DNA of 64,000 bases from an uncultured Erysipelotrichaceae bacterium (GTDB lineage Bacteria; Bacillota_I; Bacilli_A; RF39; UBA660), in assembly GCA_902795215.1 (NCBI GenBank), contig CADBKG010000002.1, positions 2,318-66,317 of the forward strand. The letters are read 5' to 3'. How positions within the stretch are numbered: position 1 is the first letter of the stretch; each line of letters begins with the position of its first letter. Positions 4,177-29,282 of this stretch are shown here, piece after piece. Made by a program: the position numbers and the translations under genes. Below the pieces are notes generated by a model. That model saw only the letters and a program-made list of their open reading frames with translations, did not search any database and had not been told where the DNA came from.

Positions 4177-4590
4177 TTATTTTTTTGTTTCTTTTGTATC
4201 TATAGTACCTCTAAATACAACGTATTTATCATATAAATATTCAAGAACAAAATTACATAGCATACTAATTCCTGTAACAATATATTCATTAACTTTTAAG
4301 TTTTTAACTAAGTAGTTACCACCTATTGTAGATGCTGGTGTAAATATTAAATAAAATATAAATACTTTTATCATTGCTTTTGGAATATTTGCAGTTGATT
4401 TAAAGGTATATTCTCTATTTAAAGTAAAGTTCCATATTACACTAGCGACAAGCGCTGTTAGATAGCATACCCAGTATCCAAAACTAGTTAGTTCATTTAA
4501 AATAGTAAAAATTATTATCTCTATTATTCCTGCAGATATTGAAAATAAAGTAAATTTTATCTTTCTAAGTAATTCTTTTTTATCTTTCAT
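4177..4590 (-). CDS. GtrA family membrane protein
   Basis: four hydrophobic segments, WNFTLNREYTFKS motif, C-terminal YVVF. Confidence 0.75.
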   Translation of the reverse strand: MKDKKELLRKIKFTLFSISAGIIEIIIFTILNELTSFGYWVCYLTALVASVIWNFTLNREYTFKSTANIPKAMIKVFIFYLIFTPASTIGGNYLVKNLKVNEYIVTGISMLCNFVLEYLYDKYVVFRGTIDTKETKK

Positions 4591-4642
4591 GTTAACCTCG
4601 CAAGTTTAATTATACATTATTTATTAAATAAAAAAAAGATGA

Positions 4643-5257
4643 TTATTTTTCATCTTCTTTATATTTGATAACAACATGTCTATTAGGTTCTTCACCAGTA
4701 CTTTCTGAATATACATGTTTAAAGTCTTTAATAGCTTCATGAACTACTAATCTTTCATATGAATTCATATTATCAAGTTCTACGTCTTGTTTTGTTTTAG
4801 ATACTTCTCTAGCTATTCTCTTAGCAGTTTTTTGTAAATACATTATTTGTTTATCTTTATAATTTTCAACATCTAATGAAATATAAGGCATTGTACCATA
4901 TTTGTTTTTTACTGCTGCCCTTGTAATAGTTTGAAGAGCTGATAAGTTTTTACCAGTATGTCCTATAAGTAATGAGTTATCGTCAGAATAGATTTTAACT
5001 TTTAATTGTTTTTCTCTTATTTGAGACTCAAAAGATACATCTAATCCCATATTAGTTAGTACTTTTTGTAAGTATCCTTTTATATATTCTACAACATCTT
5101 TTAAAGGAGTTACTGTTAATTCTATTTCTTTTCCTTTAAATAAACTCTTTTTTACTTCTTTTTTACTTACTATTACGTCATCTTCAGTTAGTTTTAATTC
5201 TTCTAAAGCTTGCGCTAGTATTTCATCATAGTTTTTTCCAACATATACATTTAACAT
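4643..5257 (-). CDS. jag: RNA-binding protein Jag/EloR/KhpB (KH + R3H)
   Basis: LIGHTGKNLSALQ KH motif, MNSYERLVVH R3H motif; start moved to ATG 5257 (MLNVYVGK) after the yidC stop. Confidence 0.92.
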   Translation of the reverse strand: MLNVYVGKNYDEILAQALEELKLTEDDVIVSKKEVKKSLFKGKEIELTVTPLKDVVEYIKGYLQKVLTNMGLDVSFESQIREKQLKVKIYSDDNSLLIGHTGKNLSALQTITRAAVKNKYGTMPYISLDVENYKDKQIMYLQKTAKRIAREVSKTKQDVELDNMNSYERLVVHEAIKDFKHVYSESTGEEPNRHVVIKYKEDEK

Positions 5258-13449: not shown

Positions 13450-15993
13450 ATGGATATCGAAGAAGAAAACAATTTAGAAGAAAACGAATCATTTGATGAA
13501 GCAGCAGATAGAAAACAAGAAAATAACATAGTTAATGAAATAAGCAAATCCTTTTTAAGATATTCAATGAGTGTTATAACTTCTAGAGCTATTCCTGATT
13601 TAAGAGATGGTTTAAAACCTGTTCAAAGAAGAATACTTTTCGACATGTATAAGGAAGGTATAACTCCTGATAAACAACATAAAAAATCCGCAACAACTGT
13701 TGGGTCTGTTATGGGTCTTTACCATCCGCATGGGGATTCATCAATATATGAAGCTATGGTACGTATGGCACAAGATTTTAATTATCGTTATATGCTTATA
13801 GATGGCCATGGTAACTTTGGTAACGTTGAATCTTCAAGACCAGCAGCAATGCGTTATACAGAATCAAGATTATCTAAAATTTCTCTTGAAATGTTAAGAG
13901 ATTTGAACAAAGATACTGTTGATATGATGCCTAACTATTCTGAAGATAAAATGGAACCAGTTACGCTTCCATCTAGATTTCCAAACATTTTAGTTAATGG
14001 AACTATGGGTATCGCAGTAGGTATGGCTACAAATATTCCGCCACATAACTTAACAGAAGTAATTAATGGATGTATTGCTTATATTGACAATCCTGAAATA
14101 GATACTGCAGGACTAATGGAATACGTAAAAGGTCCAGATTTCCCTTTAGGTGGTATAATTTTAGGTAATAAAGGCATAAAAGATGCTTATGAAACTGGAA
14201 GAGGCAGTCTTACAATACGAAGTAATGCTGTTATAGAAGAAAAGGGCGGTAGAAACTATATAGTAGTTGATCAAATCCCTTATGGAGTTAATACTTCTGA
14301 ATTAAAACAAAAAGTAGCAGATTTAGTTAAGAACAAAATAATAGAAGGTATTGCGGATTATCATACAGATTTAAAACATGGAGTTAAAATAACAATTACA
14401 CTTAAAAAAGATGCTAATCCTCAAGTTGTATTAAATCAATTATATAAACATACGGATTTTCAAACAAAATTTGGTATTATATTTTTAATGCTTGATAATG
14501 GAGTTCCTAGAACTCTAGGTTTAAGGGATATTATTGAAAAATATATAATGTACCAAAAGGAAGTAATTGTAAGAAGAACAAAATACGATTTAAAAGTTGC
14601 AGAAGATAGAGTTCATATATTAAAGGGCCTATTAATCGCTGTTGATAACATTGATGAAGTTGTTAAAATCATTAGAGGCGCAGAAACTAGTGAAGAAGCA
14701 CTTGAAAAACTAACTAAACGCTTTGGATTAGATGAAATTCAAGGAAATGCAATTCTAGAAATGCGTTTAAGAAAATTAACAGGCTTAGAAAGAGAAAAGA
14801 TTGAAAAAGAGACTGAAGAACTACTAAAATTAATTGAAGAATTAAAAGCAATTTTAGCTAGTGATGAAAAAATATATGAAGTTATTAAGAATGAATTAAT
14901 TGAAATTAGAGATAAATATGGTGATGAAAGACGTACTCATATCGATATGACTGCTATTGATTATATCGAAGATGAATCTTTAATTCCAGATGAAAATAGT
15001 ATCATTACATTAACAGAAAAAGGATATATTAAACGTTTATCTGTAGATACTTATAAAGTTCAAAACCGTGGAGGTAAGGGAATTAAAGGAATGAGTACTA
15101 ATGAAGAAGATAATGTTAAAATTATGCTTAATATAATGACTCATGACGATATATTATTCTTTACTAATAAAGGAAAAGTATACAGAATTAAAGGATATGA
15201 AATACCTGAGTTTAGTAGACAAGCGAAAGGATTACCTATTATTAATCTTCTAAATATTGAAAAAGATGAACAAGTAAGTTCACTAATAAAGATAACTAAG
15301 GATGAAATTGAAGATGTAAAATATTTATTCTTTGCTACTAAAGACGGTGTAGTTAAGAGGACAAGTCTAGAAGAGTTTAAAAACATTAGACAAACAGGTA
15401 AAATAACAATTACATTGAAAGAAAATGATGAATTAATCGCAGTTAGAAAAACAACAGGCCAAAACAAGATATTACTCGGATCTACAAATGGACATGCTGT
15501 ATTATTTGATGAAAATGAAGTTAGAGTAATGGGAAGAACTGCATCTGGTGTAAGAGGAATTAATATGCCTGATGGCAAATGTATTTGTTGTGAAGTATGT
15601 ACTTTAGATTCTAATTTACTTATTGTTAGTGAAAAAGGGTATGGTAAGCGTACTTTTGTTAAAGAGTTTAGAGAAACTAAACGTGGAAGCAAAGGAGTTA
15701 AAGCTATTAATATAACAGAAAAGAATGGTAAGATTGCTGCAATTAATCTAGTAAGTGATGAAAATGATGCAATTATTATTACTGATTCTGGCATGGTTAT
15801 AAGAATTGGTGTTGAAACTGTATCTCAATTAAGTAGAAATACTCAAGGAGTAAGACTTATTAATCTTAAAGATGAACAATTAGTAACTTCAGTAAGTATT
15901 GTTGATAAATCTGAAGAGGATGAAGAAACTGACGAAGAAAGCAAAGAAACAGCTGAAGAAACTAATAGTGAACAAAAAAACGAAGAGAATTAA
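13450..15993 (+). CDS. gyrA: DNA gyrase subunit A
   Basis: [26 protein letters not shown], GyrA box QNRGGKG, acidic tail. Confidence 0.98.
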
Positions 15994-16011
15994 AATATTC
16001 TCTCTTTTTTT
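15985..16011 (+). terminator. intrinsic terminator after gyrA
   Basis: AGAGAAT-taaaat-ATTCTCT followed by a T-tract. Confidence 0.65.
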
Positions 16012-16020
16012 ACTCAAAAA

Positions 16021-16078
16021 TATTTCCCGGGAAATATTTTAGGGGTACCCCCTCCTTGTGAAACCAGGTACAACCACG
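16021..16078. repeat. composite repeat copy A: Noc-box palindrome + GGGGTACCCC palindrome + conserved tail
   Basis: TATTTCCCGGGAAATA 16021-16036; GGGGTACCCC 16042-16051; tail gaaaccaggtacaacc. Confidence 0.88.
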
Positions 16079-16120
16079 ATTTAGAGCTTTTAAAACACAT
16101 ATTTTTAGTTAAAATGTAAT

Positions 16121-16177
16121 TATTTCCCGGGAAATAATCCAGGGGTACCCCCTAGCTGGAACACTAGGTGCAACCGT
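16121..16177. repeat. composite repeat copy B
   Basis: TATTTCCCGGGAAATA 16121-16136; GGGGTACCCC 16142-16151; tail ctagctggaacactaggtgcaacc. Confidence 0.88.
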
Positions 16178-16219
16178 AATTTGTGCAAAAAATGATTTTT
16201 TGAAAAATTTATTTTTTGA

Positions 16220-16235
16220 TATTTCCCAGGAAATA
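16220..16235. promoter_or_regulatory. Noc-box-like palindrome (one mismatch), 8 bp from parS
   Basis: TATTTCCCAGGAAATA. Confidence 0.7.
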
Positions 16236-16243
16236 AAAAACTA

Positions 16244-16259
16244 TGTTTCACGTGAAACA
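16244..16259. promoter_or_regulatory. parS site 1
   Basis: TGTTTCACGTGAAACA, perfect ParB/Spo0J consensus palindrome. Confidence 0.95.
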
Positions 16260-16317
16260 TTTAGTCAAAAATCTAGTTATTAATATTATAAACTCAAATG
16301 ACAAATATACTTGAAAT

Positions 16318-16424
16318 AAAAAAATGCACCCATCTAGTAGATAGGTGCAACAGAAGGGCAAGATTTCAACTTGCATCTCTTATATTATTATAAGTGTTTT
16401 CACTCGTAAACTACTCTCCTGTGC
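16318..16424 (-). ncRNA. putative orphan sRNA / micro-ORF transcript (about 107 nt; encodes MKTLIII at 16403-16380)
   Basis: extended -10 TGCTATAAT (16438-16430), start near G16424, multibranched fold, terminator TGCACC...GGTGCA plus T-tract ending near 16318. Confidence 0.55.
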
Positions 16425-16498
16425 AAGTTATTATAGCATATATTTTCTTTTTATTAAAACAAATAATATAAAATATATGTTTATTTATAAAATTATGA

Positions 16499-16514
16499 TG
16501 TTTCACGTGAAACA
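16499..16514. promoter_or_regulatory. parS site 2
   Basis: TGTTTCACGTGAAACA. Confidence 0.95.
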
Positions 16515-16695
16515 TCTATAGTGGTATTTAACTACCTGCTAAAAACTGTAATTATACTGCAAAATATCAAATAACAAGATGATTGTTAATTGCTATTAGT
16601 GTAATAAAATAATGGGCAATATTGTAAATGGTCATGTTTAAAAAGTTTAAATTATTATATATGTTTATTATATTATGGTTTTTTGTTAAAATTTA

Positions 16696-16711
16696 TGTTT
16701 CACGTGAAACA
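16696..16711. promoter_or_regulatory. parS site 3
   Basis: TGTTTCACGTGAAACA; the palindrome extends to TTTATG...CATAAA. Confidence 0.95.
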
Positions 16712-16773
16712 TAAAAAAAGAAATTAAATATGCAAAAATTTAATTTTTGAAAAAAACGTTTTTTGTATATAAT

Positions 16774-16830
16774 TATTTCCCGGGAAATAATCCGGGGGGT
16801 ACCCCCTAGCTAGAACACTAATTACAACCG
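16774..16830. repeat. composite repeat copy D
   Basis: TATTTCCCGGGAAATA 16774-16789; GGGGGGTACCCCC 16794-16806; tail ctagctagaacactaattacaacc. Confidence 0.88.
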
Positions 16831-16943
16831 TTATACTATTAAAATTTTGTGATTATATTATTGATATATCCCTATAAATACATTGTGATATATACTAAAA
16901 AAAAGTTGCAAAAATTTGTTTTTTGAAATTGATGCATTATATG

Positions 16944-16972
16944 TTGATAAAATAAATGTAGTTTGATATAAT
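16944..16972 (+). promoter_or_regulatory. sigmaA-type promoter of ffs
   Basis: TTGATA-17 bp-TATAAT. Confidence 0.75.
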
Positions 16973-16978
16973 TAAAAA

Positions 16979-17049
16979 GCACAACGGGCGATTATTGAAA
17001 CTGGTCAGGACTGGAAGGTAGCAGCCATAAAATTTGAACTCGTGTGTGC
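16979..17049 (+). ncRNA. ffs: signal recognition particle RNA (small 4.5S type, about 71 nt)
   Basis: domain IV motif GGTCAGG-ACT-GGAA-GGT-AGCAGCC; closing stem GCAC/GTGC and ACGGG/CTCGT; T-tract after; next to tadA-dnaX as in Bacillus. Confidence 0.9.
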
Positions 17050-17068
17050 TTTTTTGTTGGAGGGAAAT

Positions 17069-17503
17069 ATGGAAGAAAAAATACTAAAAAAACTATTTCA
17101 GTTAGCTAACAAATCATATAATAAAAAAGAATTTCCGGTTGGAGCAATTATATTTGACGACAACTTCAATATTATAAGCACTGGATATAATAGAAGGAAT
17201 AAGAGTAATATAACTATTGATCATGCTGAAATAACTGCGATTACAAAAGCTAACAAAAGACTCAATTCATGGAGGTTAAATGATCTATGTATGATAGTTA
17301 CCCTTGAACCTTGTGATATGTGCAAAACAGTTATTAAAGAAGCAAGATTAAAAGAAATATATTATATTGTTCCAAGATTAAAATACAAAAAACAATATAA
17401 AAATATAATTATCAAACAATACAAGATAAAAAGCGATAAAATCAATAAACAAATAGAAGAATATAGTCAAAAAATATCTACTTTTTTTAATGAGAAACGC
17501 TAG
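17069..17503 (+). CDS. tadA: tRNA adenosine(34) deaminase TadA
   Basis: EFPVGAII, HAE...TLEPCDMC zinc motif; start ATG 17069 after GGAGG. Confidence 0.9.
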   Translation: MEEKILKKLFQLANKSYNKKEFPVGAIIFDDNFNIISTGYNRRNKSNITIDHAEITAITKANKRLNSWRLNDLCMIVTLEPCDMCKTVIKEARLKEIYYIVPRLKYKKQYKNIIIKQYKIKSDKINKQIEEYSQKISTFFNEKR

Positions 17504-17547
17504 CTATTAAGGGCTTAATTTGCTATAATATTTATGGAGATGGTTAT

Positions 17548-19059
17548 ATGGCATACAAAGTTTTATACAGAAAATATAGGCCGAGTACTTTTTCGGAAAT
17601 AGTAGGGCAAGAAGTAATTGTTAAAACTCTACAAAACAGCATAATTAACGATAAAATTTCCCATGCCTATTTGTTTACAGGGCCACGTGGAACTGGAAAA
17701 ACATCAACAGCTAAAGTGCTAGCAAAAGTGCTTAATTGTCAAAATATAAAAAATGGTGAAGCCTGCGGTAAATGTGATTCTTGTAAAAATTTTAATTCTT
17801 CGCCAGATATTTTGGAAATCGATGCGGCATCTAATAATGGCGTTGAAGAAATAAGAGAGTTAAGAAATAATATATCTCTCGCACCATCTGTTTCAAAATA
17901 CAAAGTATATATTATTGATGAAGTACATATGTTATCAAGTGGCGCTTTTAATGCTTTACTCAAAACGTTAGAAGAACCTCCTGAACATGCAATATTTATA
18001 CTTGCAACTACGGAAGTATATAAGGTTCCAATTACTATTTTATCTAGATGTCAACGATTTGATTTTAAGAAAATTACAGAAGAAGATATGTCTTCCCATC
18101 TTAAAGAAATATGTAAAAAAGAAAAGATTGATTGCAATGATGATGTGATTAAAGAAATATATAATTTGAGTGATGGCTGTATGAGAGATGCCTTAAGTAT
18201 ACTTGATCAAAACTCAAAATTAGATGGTAAAGTAACTATTGATGAACTCGAAAATAATTATGAAATTGTTACCAGAAAATCAATTGATGAGCTCTTAGAT
18301 TCAATTAAAACTGCAAATGTTAAAAAAACTGTTGAAATTATAGATACATACGCTAATAATGGAATGAATTCACAGAAACTTATAAAAGGAATTATAAGGT
18401 ATTTAAACCAAATAGCAGTGGATTGCAAACTACATAAAATAAATAATTATGATTTTAATAAAATAAAAAAAATTATAATGAAATTAAATGATTGCTATAT
18501 TGATGCTAGAATTAATGACAACGTTTTTGACATCATTAAGCTTTCTTTCTTGGAAGAAATGGATGAAATATCAGTTAGTTCTTCGGAAGAAAAAGTATTA
18601 CCTAAAGAAAATGAAGAAAAGCCAAAAGACAAAAGTTTAATTGACATAAGAATAAATAACTGTTTTAGCTCTGCAAATAAAGAATCCTTGACAAAGATTA
18701 AAGAAATATGGGATGAAGCAAAAAAACAAAGGATTAATAATATAAATTTAAGTGATTATTCACCAATTGCAGCTTCTGATACTAATATAATATTTACATC
18801 AGAAGACGAATCTCTAGCTAACTTAATGAATGTTAATGCAACATCTGTTGAAAAGGTTGTTAAAAAACTCGGTTTTCCAGCTAAGGTGGTAGGTATTTCA
18901 TCTAAAAAATGGGATGAATTAAAAAAAGAATTTATATTAAATAAACAAAAAGGAATAAAATATGAATATATTGAAGAACCGAAAAAAACTGATAAAGGAA
19001 ACAAAATAAAAGAAGAAGTTAATCAAATATTTGAAAGTGAAATTGTTGAAATTTCATAA
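17548..19059 (+). CDS. dnaX: DNA polymerase III subunit gamma/tau
   Basis: YRKYRP, GPRGTGKTS, IDEVHML, ILSRCQRF. Confidence 0.97.
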   Translation: MAYKVLYRKYRPSTFSEIVGQEVIVKTLQNSIINDKISHAYLFTGPRGTGKTSTAKVLAKVLNCQNIKNGEACGKCDSCKNFNSSPDILEIDAASNNGVEEIRELRNNISLAPSVSKYKVYIIDEVHMLSSGAFNALLKTLEEPPEHAIFILATTEVYKVPITILSRCQRFDFKKITEEDMSSHLKEICKKEKIDCNDDVIKEIYNLSDGCMRDALSILDQNSKLDGKVTIDELENNYEIVTRKSIDELLDSIKTANVKKTVEIIDTYANNGMNSQKLIKGIIRYLNQIAVDCKLHKINNYDFNKIKKIIMKLNDCYIDARINDNVFDIIKLSFLEEMDEISVSSSEEKVLPKENEEKPKDKSLIDIRINNCFSSANKESLTKIKEIWDEAKKQRINNINLSDYSPIAASDTNIIFTSEDESLANLMNVNATSVEKVVKKLGFPAKVVGISSKKWDELKKEFILNKQKGIKYEYIEEPKKTDKGNKIKEEVNQIFESEIVEIS

Positions 19060-19078
19060 AAGGAAAGGATGATAAATT

Positions 19079-19375
19079 ATGAATATGCAAAATTTAATGG
19101 CTCAAGCACAGAGAATGCAAAAAGATATAACAAAAAAACAAGAGGAGATATATAAAAAAACATTTGTTGGTAAATCTGAATGGATTGAAATTACGATGAA
19201 TGGAAAAAAAGAAATTATTGATTTAAAAATTAAATATGAAGGCGATCTTAATGAAGATAAAGATATGCTACAAGATATGTTATTACTTGCTATGAAGGAT
19301 GCTACTTCACAAATTGAAAAAGAAGTTGAATCTAGTCTTGGCATGTATGGTAATATGCTTGGTGGTTTAATGTAA
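19079..19375 (+). CDS. nucleoid-associated protein YbaB/EbfC (YaaK)
   Basis: MNMQNLMAQAQRMQ N-terminus, DMLQDMLLLA; between dnaX and recR. Confidence 0.9.
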   Translation: MNMQNLMAQAQRMQKDITKKQEEIYKKTFVGKSEWIEITMNGKKEIIDLKIKYEGDLNEDKDMLQDMLLLAMKDATSQIEKEVESSLGMYGNMLGGLM

Positions 19376-19977
19376 TGAATATTTATCCAGAACTTTTAAA
19401 AACTTTAATAGAATACTTTAGAAAATTACCGGGAATAGGTGAAAAAACAGCCGAGAGATATGCTCTTGCTTTAATTGATTTAGATGAAGATGACTTAGAA
19501 TCTTTTGCTAGTTCTATTAATCAAATAAAAAAAGAACTAAAGACATGTGAAATATGTGGTCATTTAACGGATAAAAGGAAATGCTATATTTGCGATGACG
19601 AAACTAGAAATCAAAATTTAATATGCGTTGTAGAAGATTATAAAAGTGTTTTTATGTTTGAAAAAACCGCTAAGTTTAATGGAGTATATCATGTTTTAAA
19701 TGGTTTGATTTCCCCAATTGATGGTGTTAATCCAGACGATTTAAATATCAATTCACTAGTTAAAAGATGTGATAAACTAGAAAATGCAGAATTGATACTT
19801 GCTCTAAAGCCAAATATTGAAGGAGATACAACTACTTTATATATTAAAAAAATACTAGAGGATAAAGATATTAAAATAACTAGACTATCAAACGGTATAC
19901 CTATGGGCGCTGATATTGAATATATTGATATTCTAACTCTAGAACGAGCATTAAGTGATAGAAAAGAAATTGTATAA
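19375..19977 (+). CDS. recR: recombination mediator RecR
   Basis: LPGIGEKTAER, CxxC...CxxC zinc finger, Toprim YHVLNGLISP. Confidence 0.97.
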   Translation: MNIYPELLKTLIEYFRKLPGIGEKTAERYALALIDLDEDDLESFASSINQIKKELKTCEICGHLTDKRKCYICDDETRNQNLICVVEDYKSVFMFEKTAKFNGVYHVLNGLISPIDGVNPDDLNINSLVKRCDKLENAELILALKPNIEGDTTTLYIKKILEDKDIKITRLSNGIPMGADIEYIDILTLERALSDRKEIV

Positions 19978-20004
19978 TTTAAAGTTTTAAACATATAGTT
20001 TAAC

Positions 20005-20187
20005 ATGAGAACTATATATATAATATTAAAAAGAATTATTTTTGCATTTGGTTTAATATACGGATTTAATATGATAATGCAGAGAATAGATATATTTATA
20101 CCATTAAACGAATTTACTATAGGAACTATATCTTTTCTTGGATTCCCTGGATTATTTTTGATAGTAGGGTTGATTAATTTTATATAA
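20005..20187 (+). CDS. bofA: pro-sigmaK processing inhibitor BofA family protein
   Basis: small two-TM protein with IPLNEFTIGTISFLGFPG (IPIN...LG.PG motif); follows recR as in Bacillus. Confidence 0.75.
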   Translation: MRTIYIILKRIIFAFGLIYGFNMIMQRIDIFIPLNEFTIGTISFLGFPGLFLIVGLINFI

Positions 20188-20196
20188 TGGAGAATT

Positions 20197-20985
20197 ATGG
20201 AAGCACAAAAAGAAGTAAAAAAAATAATTACAGAATTTAATGAGAATATTAATTCCCATGTTTTTTTGGTAGAAACAGATAACCTAGAATTAGCATATAA
20301 AGATATTAAAAACGTTATTAAAGAGAATATTAAAGACAAAATAAGCAAAGAACAAATAGAAAATGAAACTTATTTAGAGTTAACAATAATAAAGCCCAAT
20401 AATAAAGATATTGGTAGAGATGAAATATTAAATTTGCAACAAAAAATAAAGACAAAACCTATATTATCAGAAAATCAATATTATATTATATATAGTGCTG
20501 ATCAAATGACTCTAAATGCTGCCAATAAATTGTTGAAAACAATAGAAGAACCTTACGATGGGACTATCGGATTTTTAATTACAACAAATGTTGATTTAAT
20601 AATTCCGACAATTAAAAGTAGATGTGAAGTAAAAAGTGTTATTTATAATAATAAAAAAGAAGAAATTGATAGCGAAAATGATAAAATAGCTCTTAAATTT
20701 ATTGAGCTTGTTGAAGAAGGAAGTCTTTATGATTGGCATGAATATAGTGCGAGTATAAACGATTTAAAAGATAAAGCTGTTGAAATAGCAAATATAGTAA
20801 AAAAATACTATACAGATGCTGCTAAACAAGAAAATGTAATAAAAACTATAGAAAAAAATAATAAATATGATACAATTGTTAAGAAATCACTGTTTTTAAA
20901 CAGATTTTTAACAAAATTAAGAATTAATATGAATAGTTTGTTATTGCTTGAAACACTTTATATTAATTTAAAGAAGGTGAAATAA
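20197..20985 (+). CDS. holB: DNA polymerase III delta' subunit
   Basis: ADQMTLNAANKLLKTIEEP, IIPTIKSRC; N-terminal P-loop degenerate. Confidence 0.85.
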   Translation: MEAQKEVKKIITEFNENINSHVFLVETDNLELAYKDIKNVIKENIKDKISKEQIENETYLELTIIKPNNKDIGRDEILNLQQKIKTKPILSENQYYIIYSADQMTLNAANKLLKTIEEPYDGTIGFLITTNVDLIIPTIKSRCEVKSVIYNNKKEEIDSENDKIALKFIELVEEGSLYDWHEYSASINDLKDKAVEIANIVKKYYTDAAKQENVIKTIEKNNKYDTIVKKSLFLNRFLTKLRINMNSLLLLETLYINLKKVK

Positions 20986-21746
20986 TGGTTGTAGGAGTAA
21001 AATTTTCTGAATTAGGTAAAAGCTATAATTTCTTATGTGATTTAGACGTCAAAGAAAATGATAAAGTTATCGTTGAAACTGAAAGAGGATTACAATTAGG
21101 ATTAATTAGTGAAATTAACGTAACAACTAAAAATAAAGATTTAAAAGATGTTAAATCAATCGCAACTGATAAAGAATATGATACATATTTAAAAAATATT
21201 GATGATGCTAAAGAAGCGCTAGAAAAATGCAAGAATTTAATTGAAAAATTAAAACTTGATATGAACGTTATAGATGCTAGTTATTCATTAGATAAAAAAA
21301 TATTACTTTTTAATTTTTATGCAGACGAAAGAGTTGATTTTAGAGAATTAGTTAAGGAGCTTGCAACTATATATCATACAAGGATTGAATTGCACCAAAT
21401 AGGTATTCGAGATAAAGCAAAAATTGTTGGTGGTATTGGCATGTGTGGTAGAACTTTATGCTGTTATAATCATTTAAGAAATATTGATACAGTAAATATT
21501 AACATGGTTAAAAATCAAAATATTGCTCTTAATCCTACAAAAATAAATGGAGCATGCGGTAGATTATTATGCTGTTTCAATTATGAAAATGAAGTTTATA
21601 CAGAATGTCGTAAAAATTTACCTAAAGTAAAAGATATTGTAGATTATAAAGGTAAAAAGGGAGAAGTTGTAAGTGTAGATATTCTTAAAAAGAAGTACAC
21701 TTTAAAATTTGAAGACGAAGAATATAAAGAAGTTGAAGTTAAATGA
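20985..21746 (+). CDS. yaaT: PSP1-domain protein YaaT/RicT
   Basis: VIVETERGL, RVDFRELVKELA, GMCGRTLCC, GACGRLLCC. Confidence 0.93.
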   Translation: MVVGVKFSELGKSYNFLCDLDVKENDKVIVETERGLQLGLISEINVTTKNKDLKDVKSIATDKEYDTYLKNIDDAKEALEKCKNLIEKLKLDMNVIDASYSLDKKILLFNFYADERVDFRELVKELATIYHTRIELHQIGIRDKAKIVGGIGMCGRTLCCYNHLRNIDTVNINMVKNQNIALNPTKINGACGRLLCCFNYENEVYTECRKNLPKVKDIVDYKGKKGEVVSVDILKKKYTLKFEDEEYKEVEVK

Positions 21747-22438
21747 TAGAATTAAATGATTTATTTGATTATGGATTGAAAATATATCAAAATTCTGATT
21801 ATTTTAAATTTAGCATTGATTCTTTACTACTTGGTGAATTCGTAGAAATAAAAAAGAATGCTAATATACTTGATATGTGCACTGGAAATTGTCCTGTGCC
21901 TCTTTTGCTTTTAACAAAAGAAAAATTATTACATATTGATGCTGTTGAAGTACAAGAAGAAGTCTATAATCTAGCTAAAAAATCAATAGTATATAATAAA
22001 CTAGATGAAAATATAAATTTAATTAATGATGACATAAATAAACTTGTATTAAATAAAAAGTATGATATAATTACATGCAATCCGCCTTACTTTAAGGTAA
22101 ATAGCAATAAAATGCAAAATAAAAATGATATAAAAAAGATAGCAAGACATGAAGTTTTAATTAAATTAGATGATATTGCTAGAATAGCAAGTAGTAATCT
22201 AAAAGAAACAGGTGACTTTTATTTAGTACATAGACCAGAAAGAATGGTAGATATCATAAATGCTCTTAATAAATATAATTTAGGTATTAGAGAAATATGT
22301 TTAGTTAATACTAATGATACGCATATATCAAAGCTAGTATTATTTAAAGCATCTAAAAATAAAAAGAACGATGTAAAAGTTTATAATATAAATATTAAAG
22401 ATTTAAAAAGTTATAAAAGTATATTTGATTGGAGGTAG
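21743..22438 (+). CDS. tRNA1(Val) A37 N6-methyltransferase (YabB/TrmN6 family)
   Basis: FSIDSLLL, LDMCTGN, CNPPYF, ARHEV. Confidence 0.88.
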   Translation: MIELNDLFDYGLKIYQNSDYFKFSIDSLLLGEFVEIKKNANILDMCTGNCPVPLLLLTKEKLLHIDAVEVQEEVYNLAKKSIVYNKLDENINLINDDINKLVLNKKYDIITCNPPYFKVNSNKMQNKNDIKKIARHEVLIKLDDIARIASSNLKETGDFYLVHRPERMVDIINALNKYNLGIREICLVNTNDTHISKLVLFKASKNKKNDVKVYNINIKDLKSYKSIFDWR

Positions 22439-22442
22439 GAAT

Positions 22443-23000
22443 ATGAAATTGATAGTTGGACTTGGAAATCCCGGAAAGAATTATGAAAAAACAAGACACA
22501 ATGTTGGTTTTATGGTTCTTGATCACTATTTAAATGGAGAAAAATATGAAAAAAAGTTTAATGGCGAATATATAGAAAAAAATATAAATGGCGAAAAAGT
22601 TATATTTCTAAAACCTCTTAGTTATATGAACCTATCAGGCGATGTAGTAGTTAAGTTTAAAAATTATTATAAAATTGAATTAAAAGATATTTTAATAATT
22701 CATGATGATTTAGACTTAAACTTAGGAGTAGCTAAAATCAAATATTCTTCTTCATCTGGAGGAAACAATGGTATAAAGTCAATAATTGATAGATTAAATT
22801 CTAAAGACTTTGGACAATATAAAATAGGGATTGCTAATTATAACTTTCTAGATGCTAAAGACTATGTATTAGGAAAGTTTTATAAAAGCGAAGAAGAAAT
22901 ATTAAATAAGAAAATAGATGAAAGTGTAGAAGTTATTAATTATTTCATATCCAATGGAATAGAAAAAACAATGAATTATTATAACGGGTTGATAAAATGA
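22443..23000 (+). CDS. pth: peptidyl-tRNA hydrolase
   Basis: LIVGLGNPG, TRHNVGF, KPLSYMNLSG, HDDLD; the usual GGHNG motif reads GGNNG. Confidence 0.95.
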   Translation: MKLIVGLGNPGKNYEKTRHNVGFMVLDHYLNGEKYEKKFNGEYIEKNINGEKVIFLKPLSYMNLSGDVVVKFKNYYKIELKDILIIHDDLDLNLGVAKIKYSSSSGGNNGIKSIIDRLNSKDFGQYKIGIANYNFLDAKDYVLGKFYKSEEEILNKKIDESVEVINYFISNGIEKTMNYYNGLIK

Positions 23001-26000
23001 AATTTATAACTGATAAATTTATATATGATGATTCTAAGGAAATAAGTGGGTTAACCCCAGAATTAATTGCTTTATATGTAGATAATTATTTTAAATCTAA
23101 TAATGAAAATGTTGTCTTGCTTACAAGTAATATGTATGAAGCAAATAATTATTTCAAATTATTACAGGAGTATAATGACGATACCCTGTTTTTTCCAATG
23201 GATGATTTTATAACATCGATGGCAGTAGCGGTATCTCCAGATTTTAAAATAAAAAGGTTAGATACTTTAGATAAAATAAATAGTGAAAATAAGAAACATA
23301 TTATTGTTACATCACTAATGGGATATTTAAAATTTTTACCTAGCACTACGGAAAAACAGTGTCTCACAGTTACCCCCCTCCCCCAAAATATTTCCCGGGA
23401 AATAATTTTAGACACATTAGATGAGTTTGGATATCATAGAGATTCACTTGTAACATCAACTGGTGAATACGCAGTTAGAGGATTTGTAATTGATGTTTTT
23501 CCAATAGGCTATGATCATCCATTTAGAATTGAATTTTTTGGTGATGAAATAGAAGAAACAAAAGAATTTGATGAAAATACCCAGCTTACACTAAAAAAAG
23601 TAGAAAGGTTCGATTTAAAAAGAGTAAATGAAACAATTAACGAGGAAACAAGTTCATTAATGGATTATGTTAATAATGAATCTTTATTTATTATAGACAA
23701 TAATCAACTAGAAATAGCATATAAAATGCTTTCTGAAGAAATAGTCGCATATAATGAAAAAAAAGAAATTACTACTAAACACATGTATGAATTAAATGAG
23801 ATAAAGGCCGGGAAAACATTTAAAGTAAATTCTCTTAACTTATATAAAACTAAAAATCAAATTGTTTATAATTCTAAAACTATCACTAATTTTAATAGTA
23901 ATTTTGATAATTTAAAAAGATATGCATTGGAATCTTTGTTATCTAAGACTGTTTTATTCGCATTGTCAAACGATAAACAAATAGAAAGAATTAAAGAATT
24001 ATTTGATGAGGTATATTTAAATCCTAAAAAAATAGTGGATAACAAAATAAATATTATTAAAAGCAACATAAAAAATGGCTTTATATTTGAAGACTATATT
24101 ATAATTGGACCTTATGACATTGAATCATTAAAGACTAAGAACGTAAAATATAAAAATCCTATTAAAATGGGACATAAAATTAAGAACTTTGATGAACTTA
24201 CAATTGGAGATTATATTGTACATGAATCATATGGAATTGGTATATATAATGGTATAAAAACTCTTAAAAAAGGAGAATATTTAAATGATTATATTCAGCT
24301 TTTATATGCCGACAATGATAAAGTATATGTATCAGTAGATAATATTGGTAAGTTGTATAAGTATTCATCAAAGTATTCTTCTGTTAAATTAAATAAGTTA
24401 AATAGTCCAGCTTGGACTAAAAAGAAGCTTGCGGCAAGACAAAAAATAGATGATATAAAGGAAGAATTAATCAAGCTATATCAAGAAAGATCAAAAATTA
24501 AGAAAGATAAAATGAAAGACTATCCTGAAGAAGAAGCTTTTGCTTTTGAATTCCCATATGAACTTACTAAAGATCAAGAAAAATGTATATATGAAATTAA
24601 TGAGGATTTAAAAAGTACAATTCCTATGGATAGATTATTGTGCGGTGATGTTGGTTACGGAAAAACAGAGGTAGCTTTTAGGGCCATGTTTAAAACAGTA
24701 TTAAATGGTGGATGTGTAGCGTATCTTTGTCCAACAACTATTCTTTCTAGGCAACAATATGAAAACGCTTTAGAAAGATTTAAGAATTATCCAGTAAATA
24801 TAGCATTACTAAATAGATACACATCACAAGCAGAAACAAGCAAAATAATTGAAAAACTAAAAACAGGCAAGATAGATATATTATTTGGAACACATAAACT
24901 TTTAAATGATAAAATAGATTATAAGAATTTAAAACTACTCGTAGTAGATGAAGAACAAAGATTTGGAGTTAAACATAAAGAAAAAATTAAAAGTTTAAAA
25001 AATGATATAAACGTGCTTACACTATCTGCAACTCCAATACCAAGAACACTAAAGATGGCTATGAGCGGGTTAAGAGGATTATCTATCCTTGATACACCAC
25101 CAGTCAATAGATATCCGATAGAAACTTATGTAATAGAGGAAAACGAACTTATTATTAGAGACGCTATTTATAAAGAGTTATCAAGAGATGGACAAACTTA
25201 TATTCTTGTAAACAATATTGAAGAAATGCAAGCTTTGGTAACAAAAATTAAAGAATTAGTACCAACTGCAAGCGTAGTCGGTGCGCATGGTCAAATGAAT
25301 AGTAATGATTTAAATGGAATCATGCAAGACTTTGTTAAAGGTAATTATGATATTTTGGTCTGCACAACAATTATTGAAACCGGTATAGATATACCTAATG
25401 TAAATACTATTATAATTATTGATTCAGATAACTTTGGTTTATCCCAGCTTTACCAAATAAGAGGAAGAGTAGGTAGAAGTGATAAAATAGCATATGCCTA
25501 CCTTATGTATAAACCATCTAAAATACTAACTGAAACTGCAACAAAAAGATTAGAATCAATAAAAGAATTCACAGAACTAGGTAGTGGTTATAAAATAGCT
25601 TTAAGAGATTTATCAATCAGAGGCGCCGGAGACATACTTGGAAAAGAACAAGCGGGATTTATAGAAGCAATTGGACTAGATTTATATACAAAACTAATTA
25701 ATGAAGAAATATCTGGTGAAAAAGAAGAAGAAACAGAAAAGAAAATGTTAAATATTTCTACTCATATAGATGATAATTACACAGAAGATGAATCAATAAA
25801 AATAGAAATACATAAAATGATTAATGAAATCAAATCAAAAAAAGATTTAACAAAAGTTAAAGAAGAACTTGAAGATAGATTTGGAAATGTTCCAGAAGAA
25901 ATAGAAATATACATGATAGAAAAGTGTATAGAAAATATCTTTGAAGAATTAAATATTAAAAATATAATTCAAACAACAAGAGAAATAGAAATAAGCTTGC

Positions 26001-26188
26001 CAAAAGAAGTTTCAGATAAAATAAATGGAGAAAAGCTATTCTTAGAAGTTTATAATATTAACCCTAAATTTAAATTAAGTTATAAAAGTGGAGAAATACA
26101 TGTTAATCTAAATTTATTTAACTTACAAAAGAATTATATTTATTATATCTTTGATTTAGTAACTATTATTCATAATCAAGTAAAATAG
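22997..26188 (+). CDS. mfd: transcription-repair coupling factor Mfd
   Basis: GEYAVRGFVIDVF, CarD/RID, GDVGYGKTEVA, DEEQRFGV, QIRGRVGR, TRCF C-terminal domain. Confidence 0.97.
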   Translation: MKFITDKFIYDDSKEISGLTPELIALYVDNYFKSNNENVVLLTSNMYEANNYFKLLQEYNDDTLFFPMDDFITSMAVAVSPDFKIKRLDTLDKINSENKKHIIVTSLMGYLKFLPSTTEKQCLTVTPLPQNISREIILDTLDEFGYHRDSLVTSTGEYAVRGFVIDVFPIGYDHPFRIEFFGDEIEETKEFDENTQLTLKKVERFDLKRVNETINEETSSLMDYVNNESLFIIDNNQLEIAYKMLSEEIVAYNEKKEITTKHMYELNEIKAGKTFKVNSLNLYKTKNQIVYNSKTITNFNSNFDNLKRYALESLLSKTVLFALSNDKQIERIKELFDEVYLNPKKIVDNKINIIKSNIKNGFIFEDYIIIGPYDIESLKTKNVKYKNPIKMGHKIKNFDELTIGDYIVHESYGIGIYNGIKTLKKGEYLNDYIQLLYADNDKVYVSVDNIGKLYKYSSKYSSVKLNKLNSPAWTKKKLAARQKIDDIKEELIKLYQERSKIKKDKMKDYPEEEAFAFEFPYELTKDQEKCIYEINEDLKSTIPMDRLLCGDVGYGKTEVAFRAMFKTVLNGGCVAYLCPTTILSRQQYENALERFKNYPVNIALLNRYTSQAETSKIIEKLKTGKIDILFGTHKLLNDKIDYKNLKLLVVDEEQRFGVKHKEKIKSLKNDINVLTLSATPIPRTLKMAMSGLRGLSILDTPPVNRYPIETYVIEENELIIRDAIYKELSRDGQTYILVNNIEEMQALVTKIKELVPTASVVGAHGQMNSNDLNGIMQDFVKGNYDILVCTTIIETGIDIPNVNTIIIIDSDNFGLSQLYQIRGRVGRSDKIAYAYLMYKPSKILTETATKRLESIKEFTELGSGYKIALRDLSIRGAGDILGKEQAGFIEAIGLDLYTKLINEEISGEKEEETEKKMLNISTHIDDNYTEDESIKIEIHKMINEIKSKKDLTKVKEELEDRFGNVPEEIEIYMIEKCIENIFEELNIKNIIQTTREIEISLPKEVSDKINGEKLFLEVYNINPKFKLSYKSGEIHVNLNLFNLQKNYIYYIFDLVTIIHNQVK
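23369..23404 (-). repeat. inverted partial copy of the composite repeat inside mfd
   Basis: perfect TATTTCCCGGGAAATA at 23389-23404; on the minus strand it continues TTTTGGGGG-A-GGGGGGTAAC; 27 bp identical to the copy at 28487-28513. Confidence 0.8.
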
Positions 26189-26226
26189 TGAATAAAATAT
26201 TATTATTGATTTAAAATATTACTAAG

Positions 26227-26718
26227 GTGATAAACTTGAATAATAGTAATATTAGATCAATAGATGGACTTGGTAGAATTGTAATTCCTAAAAATATTAG
26301 AAATAAACTACATATTAATAGCAATGAGGAATTAGAAATATACATTGAAAATGAAAAAATAATTATTTCAAAATATTCTTCTATAAAAGAATTTATTGAA
26401 TATATTAAATTTTTAGAGGATACTTTTTCTAGAATTACAGAAAAAAACTATTTGTTTACAGAAAATGATACGGTTATCTCTTCTACAAACAAGGAATTAA
26501 TTGGCAAAAAAATGGATGACTACGATAGTCTATATGAAAAAAATCTAATTAATCACTATTATAATGGAATAGTCAATGGATATATATCAACTGAAATAAT
26601 AATTATAGATGGTCATAAAAAAGGATTGATTATCGAATATGGAAATGAAAAAACAAATGATACTAAATATTTAAGACTTTTAAAGGCTATAATTGAAAAA
26701 GCTGGAAACACATATTGA
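26227..26718 (+). CDS. spoVT: SpoVT-like regulator (AbrB-type N-terminal domain + GAF-like C-terminal domain)
   Basis: IRSIDGLGRIVIPKNIRNKL AbrB motif plus about 110-aa C-terminal domain; directly after mfd as in Bacillus. Confidence 0.75.
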   Translation: MINLNNSNIRSIDGLGRIVIPKNIRNKLHINSNEELEIYIENEKIIISKYSSIKEFIEYIKFLEDTFSRITEKNYLFTENDTVISSTNKELIGKKMDDYDSLYEKNLINHYYNGIVNGYISTEIIIIDGHKKGLIIEYGNEKTNDTKYLRLLKAIIEKAGNTY

Positions 26719-26750
26719 AATTAACAAACAATTGTGTTATATTACATTTA

Positions 26751-26945
26751 TTAAGCGGTGAAGAAAAGAGTAGATTATAAGAGTTTTAAGAGAGACTTTG
26801 GTTGGTGAAAAAAGTTAAACTCGAGTTTTTGAACATGGTTTTGGAGCTTAAACGTAATTCTTGCGTTAAAAGAAAAAAGAGCATGGGAACATGAATTAAG
26901 GTGGTACCGCGGGTTAATCTCGTCCTTTAGTTCGTGTTTTTTTTA
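26751..26945 (+). promoter_or_regulatory. T-box riboswitch (Met specifier) upstream of metG
   Basis: AGAGAG and GGTTGGTGAAA stem I motifs; specifier ATG at 26835-26837; T-box AATTAAGGTGGTACCGCG at 26894-26911; antiterminator closes with CTCGTCCTT. Confidence 0.9.
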
Positions 26946-26963
26946 TTAGAAAGAAGGGTTTTT

Positions 26964-28487
26964 ATGAACAAAGGAAAATTTTATATTACAACTCCTATTT
27001 ATTATCCATCTGCAAACTTTCATATTGGACACTGTTATACAACAATAATATGTGACTCAATCGCTAGATATAAAAGATTAGATGGATATGATACTTATTT
27101 TTTAACTGGTAGTGATGAACATGGTGAAAAAATTGAAAAGAAAGCGAATGAAGCAGGAGTTACACCAAAAGAATATGTTGATAAGATTGTCGATAATTCT
27201 AAAGATTTATGGAATGCACTTAAAATAACATATGATAGATTTATTAGAACTACTGATGAAGACCATGTTAAAATTGTTCAACATATTTTCAAAAAATTAT
27301 ATGATCAAGGTGATATTTACAAAGGAGAATACAAAGGTTTATATTGTACTCCTTGTGAATCTTTTTGGACTGAAACACAACTTGTAGATGGAAAATGCCC
27401 AGATTGTGGCAGAGATGTACATGAAGTTAGTGAAGAAGCATACTTTTTAAAACTATCTAACTATCAAGATAGACTTGAAAAATATTTAGAAGAACATCCT
27501 GATTTTATTCAACCTGAATCTAGAAAGAATGAAATGATTAATAACTTTATAAAACCAGGTCTTGAAGACTTATGTGTATCAAGAACTAGTTTTAAATGGG
27601 GTATTCCAGTTACATTTGATGAAAAACACGTTGTTTATGTATGGATAGATGCTTTATCAAACTATATAACTGCACTTGGATATTCAACAGAAAATGATGA
27701 ATTATTTAAAAAATATTGGCCTGCTGACGTACATGTTGTAGGTAAAGAAATCGTTAGATTCCACACTATTATTTGGCCAATTATGTTAATGGCACTAGAT
27801 TTACCGCTTCCTAAAAAGGTATTTGGTCATGGATGGCTAATAATCGATGGTGGTAAAATTTCTAAAAGTTTAGGTAACTACAAAGATCCAAGAGAGTATA
27901 TTGCTTCATATGGTGTAGATGCTGTTAGATATTATTCTTTAAGAGAAATTCCTTTTGGAAATGATGGTAACTTCTCTGAAGAATTATTAGTATCAAGAAT
28001 TAATTCAGATCTTGCTAATATTTGGGGTAACTTAGTTAGTAGAACTATAGGAATGGCAAATAAATACTTTGATGGTAATATTACAAATAAAAAAGTAAAT
28101 GAAGATCTTGATAAAGAATTTATAAGTCAAATTAATAAACTAAAGTCAAAGTGTGATGAAAATATTGATAATCTTCAAATATCAAAAGTATTAGAAGAAA
28201 TATTTGATGTGCTTCGCTTGAGCAATAAATATATAGATGAAACAACTCCATGGATACTTGCAAAAGATAATTCTAAAAAAGATAGACTTGAAACAGTTCT
28301 ATATAATTTATTAGAAGCTATTAGGGTTACAAATATATTGCTTAGACCATTTATGCCAGAAAGCACTGAAAAAGTTGTCTCTTATTTAAATACAAATAAT
28401 AATGAATTTAATGATACTTTATTTAAAGAAGATACAAAATATAAGGTGGCTAAAGAAGTTACACCTCTATTTGAAAGAATTAAATAA
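26964..28487 (+). CDS. metG: methionine--tRNA ligase (short form, no C-terminal tRNA-binding domain)
   Basis: YITTPIYYPS, HIGH, CTPCES...CPDC knuckle, KISKS; start ATG 26964. Confidence 0.97.
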   Translation: MNKGKFYITTPIYYPSANFHIGHCYTTIICDSIARYKRLDGYDTYFLTGSDEHGEKIEKKANEAGVTPKEYVDKIVDNSKDLWNALKITYDRFIRTTDEDHVKIVQHIFKKLYDQGDIYKGEYKGLYCTPCESFWTETQLVDGKCPDCGRDVHEVSEEAYFLKLSNYQDRLEKYLEEHPDFIQPESRKNEMINNFIKPGLEDLCVSRTSFKWGIPVTFDEKHVVYVWIDALSNYITALGYSTENDELFKKYWPADVHVVGKEIVRFHTIIWPIMLMALDLPLPKKVFGHGWLIIDGGKISKSLGNYKDPREYIASYGVDAVRYYSLREIPFGNDGNFSEELLVSRINSDLANIWGNLVSRTIGMANKYFDGNITNKKVNEDLDKEFISQINKLKSKCDENIDNLQISKVLEEIFDVLRLSNKYIDETTPWILAKDNSKKDRLETVLYNLLEAIRVTNILLRPFMPESTEKVVSYLNTNNNEFNDTLFKEDTKYKVAKEVTPLFERIK

Positions 28488-28488
28488 T

Positions 28489-28522
28489 TATTTCCCGGGA
28501 AATATTTTGGGGGTACCCCCTA
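28489..28522. repeat. composite repeat copy E (Noc-box + GGGGGTACCCCC) between metG and tatD
   Basis: TATTTCCCGGGAAATA 28489-28504; GGGGGTACCCCC 28509-28520. Confidence 0.88.
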
Positions 28523-28535
28523 GTTAGGAGGCCTT

Positions 28536-29282
28536 ATGTATACGGACACTCACTGTCATATAAGAAGTGATATTTATAAAAATATCGATGAAATTATTGA
28601 GCTTTCTATTAATGCTGGTGTTACAAAAATGATAAATAATGGTACAAATTTAGAAAGCAATAAAGAAGTTTTAGAGCTTTCAGAAAAATACAAAGCTCTT
28701 TATCCAGCATTAGGTATTCAACCTGAAGAATTAGATGATGACATAAACAAATCTCTTGATTTTATTGAAAATAATATTGATAAAATAATTGCAATAGGGG
28801 AGATAGGCCTTGATTATTACTATAGTAACGACACAAAAACTAAGCAATTAGAAATCTTTGAAAAACAAATGAAACTTGCAGATAAATATAATAAACCTGT
28901 AATTATTCATAGCAGGAATGCTTTTGATGACACAATAAAAATAATCAAAAAATATCCTAAAGTAAAAGGAGTTATACATTGTTTTTCAGGTAATTTAAAA
29001 GAAGCAGAGGAATATATAAATCAAGGCTATATGCTTGGAATTGGTGGAATTGTCACATTTAAAAACTCGGATTTAAAGAATGTCTTAAAAGAAATACCTA
29101 TTCAAAATATTGTATTAGAAACAGATTCACCATATTTGAGTCCTGTACCAAATCGAGGAAAACAAAATAATCCATCAAATATTCCACATATTGCTTCATT
29201 TTTAACTAATATATATAATGTTTCTTTAAAAGAAATATCGCAAGAAATCGAAAAAAATGTGAATAGCATATTTAATATATAG
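28536..29282 (+). CDS. tatD: TatD family hydrolase (YabD)
   Basis: DTHCH, GEIGLDY, IIHSR, HCFSG, ETDSPYL. Confidence 0.93.
   Translation: MYTDTHCHIRSDIYKNIDEIIELSINAGVTKMINNGTNLESNKEVLELSEKYKALYPALGIQPEELDDDINKSLDFIENNIDKIIAIGEIGLDYYYSNDTKTKQLEIFEKQMKLADKYNKPVIIHSRNAFDDTIKIIKKYPKVKGVIHCFSGNLKEAEEYINQGYMLGIGGIVTFKNSDLKNVLKEIPIQNIVLETDSPYLSPVPNRGKQNNPSNIPHIASFLTNIYNVSLKEISQEIEKNVNSIFNI

Follow-up and report, generated by a model that had tools for sequence, protein, structure and literature searches.

A Noc-binding-site palindrome within mfd

The window analyzed here is the whole 64,000-nucleotide stretch G000:C2:2318-66317, taken from the genome assembly of an uncultured Erysipelotrichaceae bacterium (G000; 1.34 Mb, 37 contigs, 27% GC, 93% complete). 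It spans the origin region, in the order rnpA, dnaA, dnaN, recF, gyrB, gyrA, a 1-kb spacer, and the signal recognition particle (SRP) RNA; these are followed by tadA, dnaX, ybaB, recR, holB, ricT, a methyltransferase gene, pth, mfd, an AbrB-like gene, a T-box, metG, and tatD. We focus on a 16-bp palindrome inside mfd that is identical to the Noc-binding site (NBS), and on a G-rich box (G-box) beside it. These features lie as follows:

22997..26188, plus strand: mfd, transcription-repair coupling factor, 1063 aa, with the NBS at the start of the UvrA-binding domain D2
23389..23404, no strand assigned: NBS, perfect 16-bp palindrome TATTTCCCGGGAAATA within mfd, covering N131 (3rd base)-I132-S133-R134-E135-I136
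23373..23384, minus strand: G-box GGGGGAGGGGGG, 4 nt off the NBS; the plus strand reads (AC)C CCC CTC CCC, i.e., T-P-L-P

Read directly in the window, the plus strand at 23369-23406 is GTTACCCCCCTCCCCCAAAATATTTCCCGGGAAATAAT, and on the minus strand the mfd copy runs on past the NBS as TTTT GGGGGAGGGGGG. The codons around the site are GTT ACC CCC CTC CCC CAA AAT ATT TCC CGG GAA ATA ATT, of which ACC through ATA encode T126-P-L-P-Q-N-I132-S-R-E-I136 of Mfd. Placement at D2 follows from the D2 fragment of structure 4dfc, which spans query residues 128-207. The mfd 16-mer TATTTCCCGGGAAATA matches the 16-bp NBS exactly and also contains the 14-bp core ATTTCCCGGGAAAT. It does not fit the parS consensus TGTTNCACGTGAAACA, from which it differs at both diagnostic positions of each half-site. 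A 27-mer, ATTATTTCCCGGGAAATATTTTGGGGG, is present twice without mismatch: on the minus strand at 23380-23406, and ahead of tatD on the plus strand at 28487-28513. The window contains five perfect NBS copies and one copy with a single mismatch, against a chance expectation of 0.05. An earlier, sequence-only reading of this region had described a perfect, inverted NBS within mfd, 27 bp held in common with the tatD copy, and a T-P-L-P-Q-N-I-S-R-E-I frame on atypical GC-rich codons; the letters bear out the first two observations, and the frame together with the codon counts below bears out the third.

Codon use and conservation at the mfd site

Codon use was counted over 541 long open reading frames (ORFs) of the G000 assembly. 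CGG makes up 18 of 7833 arginine codons (0.2%), TCC 2.3% of serine codons, CCC 1.8% of proline codons, CTC 1.1% of leucine codons, and ACC 4.8% of threonine codons. Just one of the 49 S-R-E tripeptides in the long ORFs, the one in mfd, is spelled TCC CGG GAA, and the two other ISREI peptides of the genome are both written with TCA AGA. Given the peptide and the codon use of the genome, the NBS spelling has p ~ 0.427 x 0.023 x 0.002 x 0.883 x 0.506, or roughly 1e-5 per species. Chance or mutational bias, acting together with protein-level conservation of ISREI, would fit the conservation of this peptide in the genus; however, with so improbable a spelling, and with TCA AGA used in the other ISREI and SRE peptides, we give this explanation almost no credence.

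Mfd orthologues were gathered from 40 relatives and aligned; the alignment comprises 30 Mfd orthologues. The codons ATT TCC CGG GAA ATA ATT are identical at the same Mfd position in G000 and in 16 of the 17 other species of the genus, while the flanks vary; the Mfd proteins of the genus are only 55-65% identical to that of G000. A codon alignment of 14 full-length mfd genes of the same genus was used for statistics on nucleotide runs and codons. The longest invariant run is 19 nt, TATTTCCCGGGAAATAATT, and the runner-up anywhere in the 3.2 kb is 5 nt. Third positions, by comparison, have a pairwise mean identity of 0.44, so that the synonymous-site comparison suggested in the sequence-only reading gives a 19-nt invariant run in a gene whose third positions are otherwise about 44% identical. 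Among 377 codons for invariant degenerate residues, 15 are identical in all 14 genes; six of these are consecutive and correspond to I132-I137, and the other nine are the common codons GAA, AAA, or TTT. The mfd copy is also the sole NBS station found in all 17 NBS-bearing genomes of the genus. Among 401 scanned genomes, which represent 214 genera of the family, the mfd version of the NBS turned up only in this genus and in genus g82 (G098 and G296).

Because the NBS codons are frozen in 17 genomes while third positions vary, the constraint acts on the DNA letters themselves; by these comparisons, the letters are under purifying selection at the DNA level, and neither protein constraint nor chance suffices to explain them. 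A DNA signal overprinted on mfd is thus strongly supported by the sequence comparisons. Avoidance of CCCGGG or a restriction site was considered and rejected, given that the 1.34-Mb assembly contains 7 CCCGGG against ~8 estimated from base composition and that the 19-nt invariant run would stay unexplained.

Arrangement of NBS copies beside oriC

The other NBS copies of the assembly, and the elements that accompany them, are located at:

16021..16805, no strand assigned: gyrA-ffs spacer array, with NBS at 16021, 16121, and 16774 (perfect) and at 16220 (1 mismatch)
16042, 16142, and 16796: GGGGTACCCC boxes in the gyrA-ffs array
16244, 16499, and 16696: parS TGTTTCACGTGAAACA in the gyrA-ffs array
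28489..28504, no strand assigned: sister NBS between the metG stop and the tatD ribosome-binding site, with the 27 bp in common with the mfd copy, then palindromic GGGGGTACCCCC

All six NBS, three parS, and four GGGGTACCCC of the 1.34-Mb assembly fall within 16021-28519 of the window (12.5 kb). The chromosome-wide scatter with terminus depletion that is expected of NBS was not seen in G000, and the relatives have the same confined layout. Their NBS are arranged in three stations: a gyrA-ffs array in which NBS and parS alternate or abut, mfd ~6.5 kb on, and often tatD ~5.2 kb beyond. Across G000 and its relatives there are 1-7 NBS per genome, all within ~13 kb beside oriC and parS, and the copy number of NBS in the array ranges from 1 to 6 among species. 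In all relatives, the 16-mer is found in both orientations in spacers beside parS, which points to a double-stranded DNA site.

This placement bears on the idea of a hairpin in mfd mRNA that affects translation, stability, or pausing. The transcript would indeed carry a perfect palindrome, and the rare CGG, TCC, and CCC codons could slow ribosomes. However, every base is invariant, including those of the would-be loop, with no compensatory changes, and the minimum-free-energy fold of the 61-nt stretch 23360-23420 leaves the palindrome unused. The identical 16-mer also occurs in non-coding spacers, in both orientations, beside parS. No Rfam family matches at the mfd site; a scan of 15900-29000 returned only the T-box, SRP RNA, and a sub-threshold match to a small RNA (sRNA). 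We therefore regard the hairpin as very unlikely.

Sites within genes are not peculiar to mfd. Four other genera of the family (G018, G019, G022, G023) and one genome of another family (G037) carry an NBS within rsmI, the gene immediately preceding pth-mfd, where it likewise reads I-S-R-E-I; the frame there is I-S-R-E-I(S/T)K, at the 'RELTK'-like motif of RsmI (L043, L045, L049, L050, L052). Further intragenic copies lie in ybaB (G022) and rsmG (G018), and intragenic NBS seem to be usual in genomes as gene-dense as these. The rsmI gene (TIGR00096) was not found in the 93%-complete G000 assembly and is missing from the pth-mfd gene row in both G000 and G004, another member of the genus. With rsmI gone from the row, the station appears to have moved ~1.3 kb, from rsmI into mfd.

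Origin of the mfd site

The alignment of the 30 Mfd orthologues contains no length change at the site, and hence none of the length gain that an inserted repeat, such as a miniature inverted-repeat transposable element (MITE) or a repetitive extragenic palindromic (REP)-like element, would have left. Residues 133-140 of Escherichia coli Mfd, QRLSRDAL, align with QNISREII and place LSRD at the same spot. In G004, the earliest-branching member of the genus on the Mfd tree, the protein reads K-L-T-R-D-S-I, with AGA as the arginine codon. The lack of any indel and the LSRD of E. coli indicate that the site was made by substitution rather than insertion. The hydrophobic-S/T-R-D/E peptide is thus old, and the NBS was superimposed on it through a small number of conservative and synonymous changes.

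The sequence-only reading held that a DNA motif is shaping the protein here. This stands in part: codon choice at ISREI is fixed, and the P-S/L-P residues upstream occur only in species with the G-box. The core peptide, however, predates the motif, as seen from K-L-T-R-D-S in G004 and R-L-S-R-D-A in E. coli. The shaping of the protein by the DNA would therefore consist mainly of codon choice at ISREI and be fuller for the upstream, G-box residues.

We also weighed whether the site is the remnant of a mobile or repeated element, NBS plus G-box, that was inserted or gene-converted into mfd and then conserved only as coding sequence. The 27 bp identical to the tatD copy would fit such an origin, as would the first three array copies, which are duplicates with a shared tail of about 65 nt. 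Past NBS+GGGGTACCCC, the three array copies (16037-16100, 16137-16200, 16790-16850) have in common a further ~45 nt (CTAGCTGGAACACTAGGTGCAACCGTAATTT-like), which is lacking from the mfd and tatD copies; the array copies are local duplicates of a longer unit. Against insertion stand the constant length of Mfd and the homologous (L/I)(S/T)R(D/E) of G004 and E. coli, and coding constraint alone cannot keep synonymous rare codons over 17 species. An inserted element is thus a most improbable source of the site. Within G000, the flank may have undergone short-patch gene conversion, but this leaves the conservation unexplained.

A Noc-like ParB paralogue encoded beside rsmG

Two ParB_N proteins are encoded in G000. 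One belongs to a Soj-ParB pair on contig 4; the other is encoded beside rsmG, at:

G000:C2:1-1425 (locus L002), minus strand: Noc-like ParB paralogue, just left of the window; its ORF runs off the contig end

The best PDB matches of the rsmG-linked ParB are Noc structures (205 bits vs 173 for Spo0J), and its best family match is TIGR04285 (282.8 bits vs 233 for canonical ParB). Jalal and colleagues traced the specificity of Noc for NBS to Q173, K179/K184, and R201, and found that a single lysine suffices (PMC7383237). In the Noc-like protein, the recognition region GVTQATIANKIRLLNL...ISERHAR has Q, K, N, and R at the specificity positions, and the same four positions of the Soj-linked ParB hold R, V, T, and A. 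The genome that carries the sites hence also encodes a ParB paralogue with Noc specificity residues, and the Q/K/R form of this protein is present in all 17 NBS-bearing genomes of the genus. The motifs of the pocket for cytidine triphosphate (CTP), GERRxR and ENxQR, are represented by IIAGERRYKAS and ENVQRKNL, which align with Noc structures, and the gene has the rsmG/gidB location. The Noc-like paralogues of this family carry an acidic proline-rich linker of 100-350 aa with the conserved short motifs KNLFG, LETSAPNL, FNPF, and ETFDMFGD, followed by a Noc-like C-terminal domain.

The gene order at this locus is the Noc-like gene, a small RelB/YafQ-like pair, and rsmG. The pair (L002:1460-2067, minus strand; 100 aa and 101 aa) may encode a putative RelB/DinJ-type antitoxin and YafQ/RelE-type toxin. 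FtsZ and SMC are present in G000, soj-parB adjoins ftsH on contig 4, away from the noc-rsmG locus, and MinD (TIGR01968) was not found in the 93%-complete assembly.

Another binder could read the site instead, e.g., canonical ParB or another dimeric regulator, with the Noc-like protein as a bystander. NBS copies do neighbor parS and in places adjoin it directly, the Noc-like protein has atypical features, and the G-box suggests a second factor. However, the site matches the experimentally defined NBS exactly, and the Noc-like protein has the residues that read its two diagnostic bases (PMC7383237), whereas canonical ParB has R and A there and perfect parS sites of its own. Together with the loss described below, this makes another binder unlikely in our judgment.

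Loss of the site in one species

G004 is the sole member of the genus that lacks the mfd NBS, and no NBS was found anywhere in its assembly. Its syntenic locus (L092, G004:C31:3000-22900) is fully assembled. The gyrA-ffs spacer, at 4215-5110, contains six parS-like TGTTCCACGTGGAACA palindromes but lacks any NBS; the metG and tatD genes overlap, which leaves no spacer there. A search of G004 with the hybrid NBS/parS pattern TNTTTCNCGNGAAANA, which does not cover TGTTCCACGTGGAACA, gave 0 matches. In the Noc-like protein of G004 (L078), the recognition region reads GIDKSTIDNKLKLLQL...ISEGHAR, i.e., K, K, Q, and G, so that the base-reading Q and R are lost.

The NBS and the specificity of its predicted reader are thus lost together in G004, where the mfd codons have relaxed and common triplets are used. 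Precisely such a joint loss would be expected if the Noc-like protein reads the site, and G004 may represent a natural reversion towards parS-type binding. Another binder would leave unexplained that G004 lost its NBS copies along with Q and R of the Noc-like protein, and an mRNA hairpin is likewise at variance with a loss of the site that coincides with a changed DNA-binding protein.

The G-box companion

A box homologous to the G-box is kept at the mfd site in nine species of the genus, as (G)AC CCC TCC CCC, read (D)-P-S-P. Six of the nine have exactly CCC TCC CCC, and three are one base off (CCT TCC CCC, CCC TCC TCC, CTC TCC CCC). These species are scattered over the whole Mfd tree, including the deepest branches, and the other eight species have unrelated residues at this place; P-S/L-P on CCC/TCC codons is found only in species that carry the G-box. 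From this distribution, the G-box was ancestral at mfd and was lost at least four times.

Outside genes, a non-palindromic GGGGGAGGGG(T) box follows intergenic NBS at a spacing of 4-5 nt in G014 (2 copies) and G015 (1 copy), and it recurs in eight loci of related metagenome-assembled genomes. The palindromic form GGGGTACCCC has four copies in G000, all intergenic. A composite of NBS and palindromic GGGGTACCCC gave 0 matches in 185k species genomes, and this form was found only in G000. These results speak against the proposal, made from the sequence alone, that only the proximal half of a second palindrome could be kept in the mfd frame: at the spacing seen in mfd, a palindromic box would be translated as G-Y-P and introduce no stop codon, so that the frame would allow it. 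As the non-palindromic box stands at intergenic NBS of sister species and is ancestral at mfd, the mfd form is the common form rather than a palindrome truncated by the reading frame.

Selection at the DNA level probably maintains the G-box, too, in about half of the species. Its fixed spacing and its retained rare codons argue for a DNA-level role, which might be to receive a partner protein or to affect loading or sliding. An antisense small ORF with the G-box as Shine-Dalgarno sequence was rejected, as no start codon is conserved after the box in the nine species and G015 reads ATG TAA.

A probable selected loading site for the Noc-like protein

We consider it highly probable that the mfd 16-mer is a selected binding and loading site for the Noc-type ParB paralogue of this genome, and that it arose when point substitutions altered the codons of an (I/L)(S/T)R(D/E) peptide already present where D2 begins. 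Actual binding, CTP-dependent spreading, and a purpose for the station layout are what we infer from this. By analogy with Noc of Bacillus subtilis, the Noc-like protein would use the palindrome as its nucleation site, bind CTP, and close into a clamp that slides to flanking DNA (PMC8429893). The mfd site is the middle one of three conserved stations, between the gyrA-ffs array with its parS sites, ~6.5 kb away, and the metG-tatD site ~5 kb beyond. Stations 5-6.5 kb apart could confine the protein to a domain of roughly 13 kb next to oriC, which it would coat. Since the genes from dnaX to mfd abut or overlap, a station at this position must sit in coding sequence; here it would be written into mfd, and in other genera ~1.3 kb upstream in rsmI, in the same I-S-R-E-I frame.

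Several points weigh against this reading. The Noc-like protein (282.8 bits) does not reach the curated TIGR04285 cut-off of 315, and it has N in place of K at position 184. No N-terminal amphipathic membrane helix was found in this family, which starts MN(E)EQVQEIFVEDIIPNRFQPR, with a stop codon a few residues before Met; as the protein begins about seven residues before the conserved VEDIIPNRFQPR segment, it has no such helix. The N-terminal helix is needed for Noc function in nucleoid occlusion (PMC4331003), and Noc proteins of other families in the class have MGLFDFLG- or MASLFNIL-type N-termini. Given the score below the cut-off, the missing helix, and the N at 184, the biochemistry of the protein may differ from that of B. 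subtilis Noc. This reading does not account for the G-box, which was lost repeatedly, in at least four places on the tree. The tatD station is absent from several species, and the regular spacing of stations follows from conserved gene order, so that selection on spacing itself need not be invoked. G004 is a single lineage, and the joint loss is one event, not a statistic. Lastly, the lineage is uncultured, and binding of the Noc-like protein at the mfd NBS is predicted.

A wider scenario can be offered tentatively, and we doubt it more than we believe it. The protein could be a Noc-derived CTP clamp that no longer serves classical nucleoid occlusion, having lost the helix, gained the acidic linker, and become loaded only in a ~13-kb domain shared with ParB-parS, where it would act as a second origin-domain organizer. 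Its sites would be bipartite, NBS plus G-box, with the G-box read by a partner; its specificity would be revertible, as in G004, where the codons then relax; and mfd would be the most stably kept station.

Comparison with known systems

The system most closely resembles Noc/NBS of B. subtilis, reportedly described by Wu and colleagues in 2009, in which NBS sites can lie inside genes. The likeness comprises the identical 16-bp palindrome, a ParB-family paralogue beside rsmG, which is the position of noc in Bacillus, the GERR motif for CTP binding, and Q, K, and R at the positions that read the NBS. In B. subtilis, about 70 NBS are spread round the chromosome except the terminus (PMC4331003), whereas there are 1-7 per genome here, within ~13 kb beside oriC/parS. 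B. subtilis Noc has a membrane helix, in contrast to the helix-less protein with an acidic linker of 100-350 aa described here; and unlike B. subtilis NBS, many of the present sites carry a G-box at a fixed spacing of 4-5 nt. Within the NBS class, the mfd site would hence be a new member that is intragenic, deeply conserved, and part of an origin-restricted, helix-less variant of Noc.

The arrangement also recalls the parS sites of ParB/Spo0J, which are few, ori-proximal, palindromic loading sites for a CTP-dependent clamp in a centromere-like layout, overprinted on genes where needed; Lin and Grossman reportedly found in 1998 that several parS sites of B. subtilis lie within coding sequences, including spo0J. 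It differs in that the mfd site is off at two diagnostic positions per half-site and that G000 has separate parS sites and a Soj-ParB pair. Binding sites and motifs of the Chi or FtsK-orienting polar sequence (KOPS) type overprinted on ORFs are similar in that a DNA signal freezes synonymous positions on rare codons; here, however, a full 16-19-nt exact palindrome is kept over the whole genus, and its release coincides with a residue change in the reader. A literature search on overprinted NBS and synonymous constraint gave nothing relevant.

The mfd site offers a clean natural case of a protein-coding gene made to spell a chromosome-organization signal: six codons in a row, including two that rank with the rarest of the genome, are frozen in a genus with synonymous sites otherwise near saturation. 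Release of this constraint in one species with changed NBS-reading residues provides an independent evolutionary test of the ParB/Noc specificity model (PMC7383237). The site further draws attention to a Noc lineage that has no membrane helix and whose sites are restricted to the origin, and the proteins with Q/K/R and K/K/Q/G form a pair that lends itself to comparison by biochemistry. Annotation of small gene-dense genomes should look for NBS-type sites inside ORFs as well, such as mfd, rsmI, ybaB, and rsmG.

Other features of the region

In the Rfam scan of 15900-29000, the T-box leader lies at 26749-26930 (108.8 bits), upstream of metG, and the SRP RNA at 16973-17058. The sub-threshold match, to the streptococcal sRNA SpF41, is located at 16318-16424 on the minus strand. 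In another genus (G021; L047, G021:C24:15000-16106), the array is built from a 66-bp tandem unit composed of an NBS, a 13-nt spacer, and a parS-like site, of which at least three copies run to the end of the contig.

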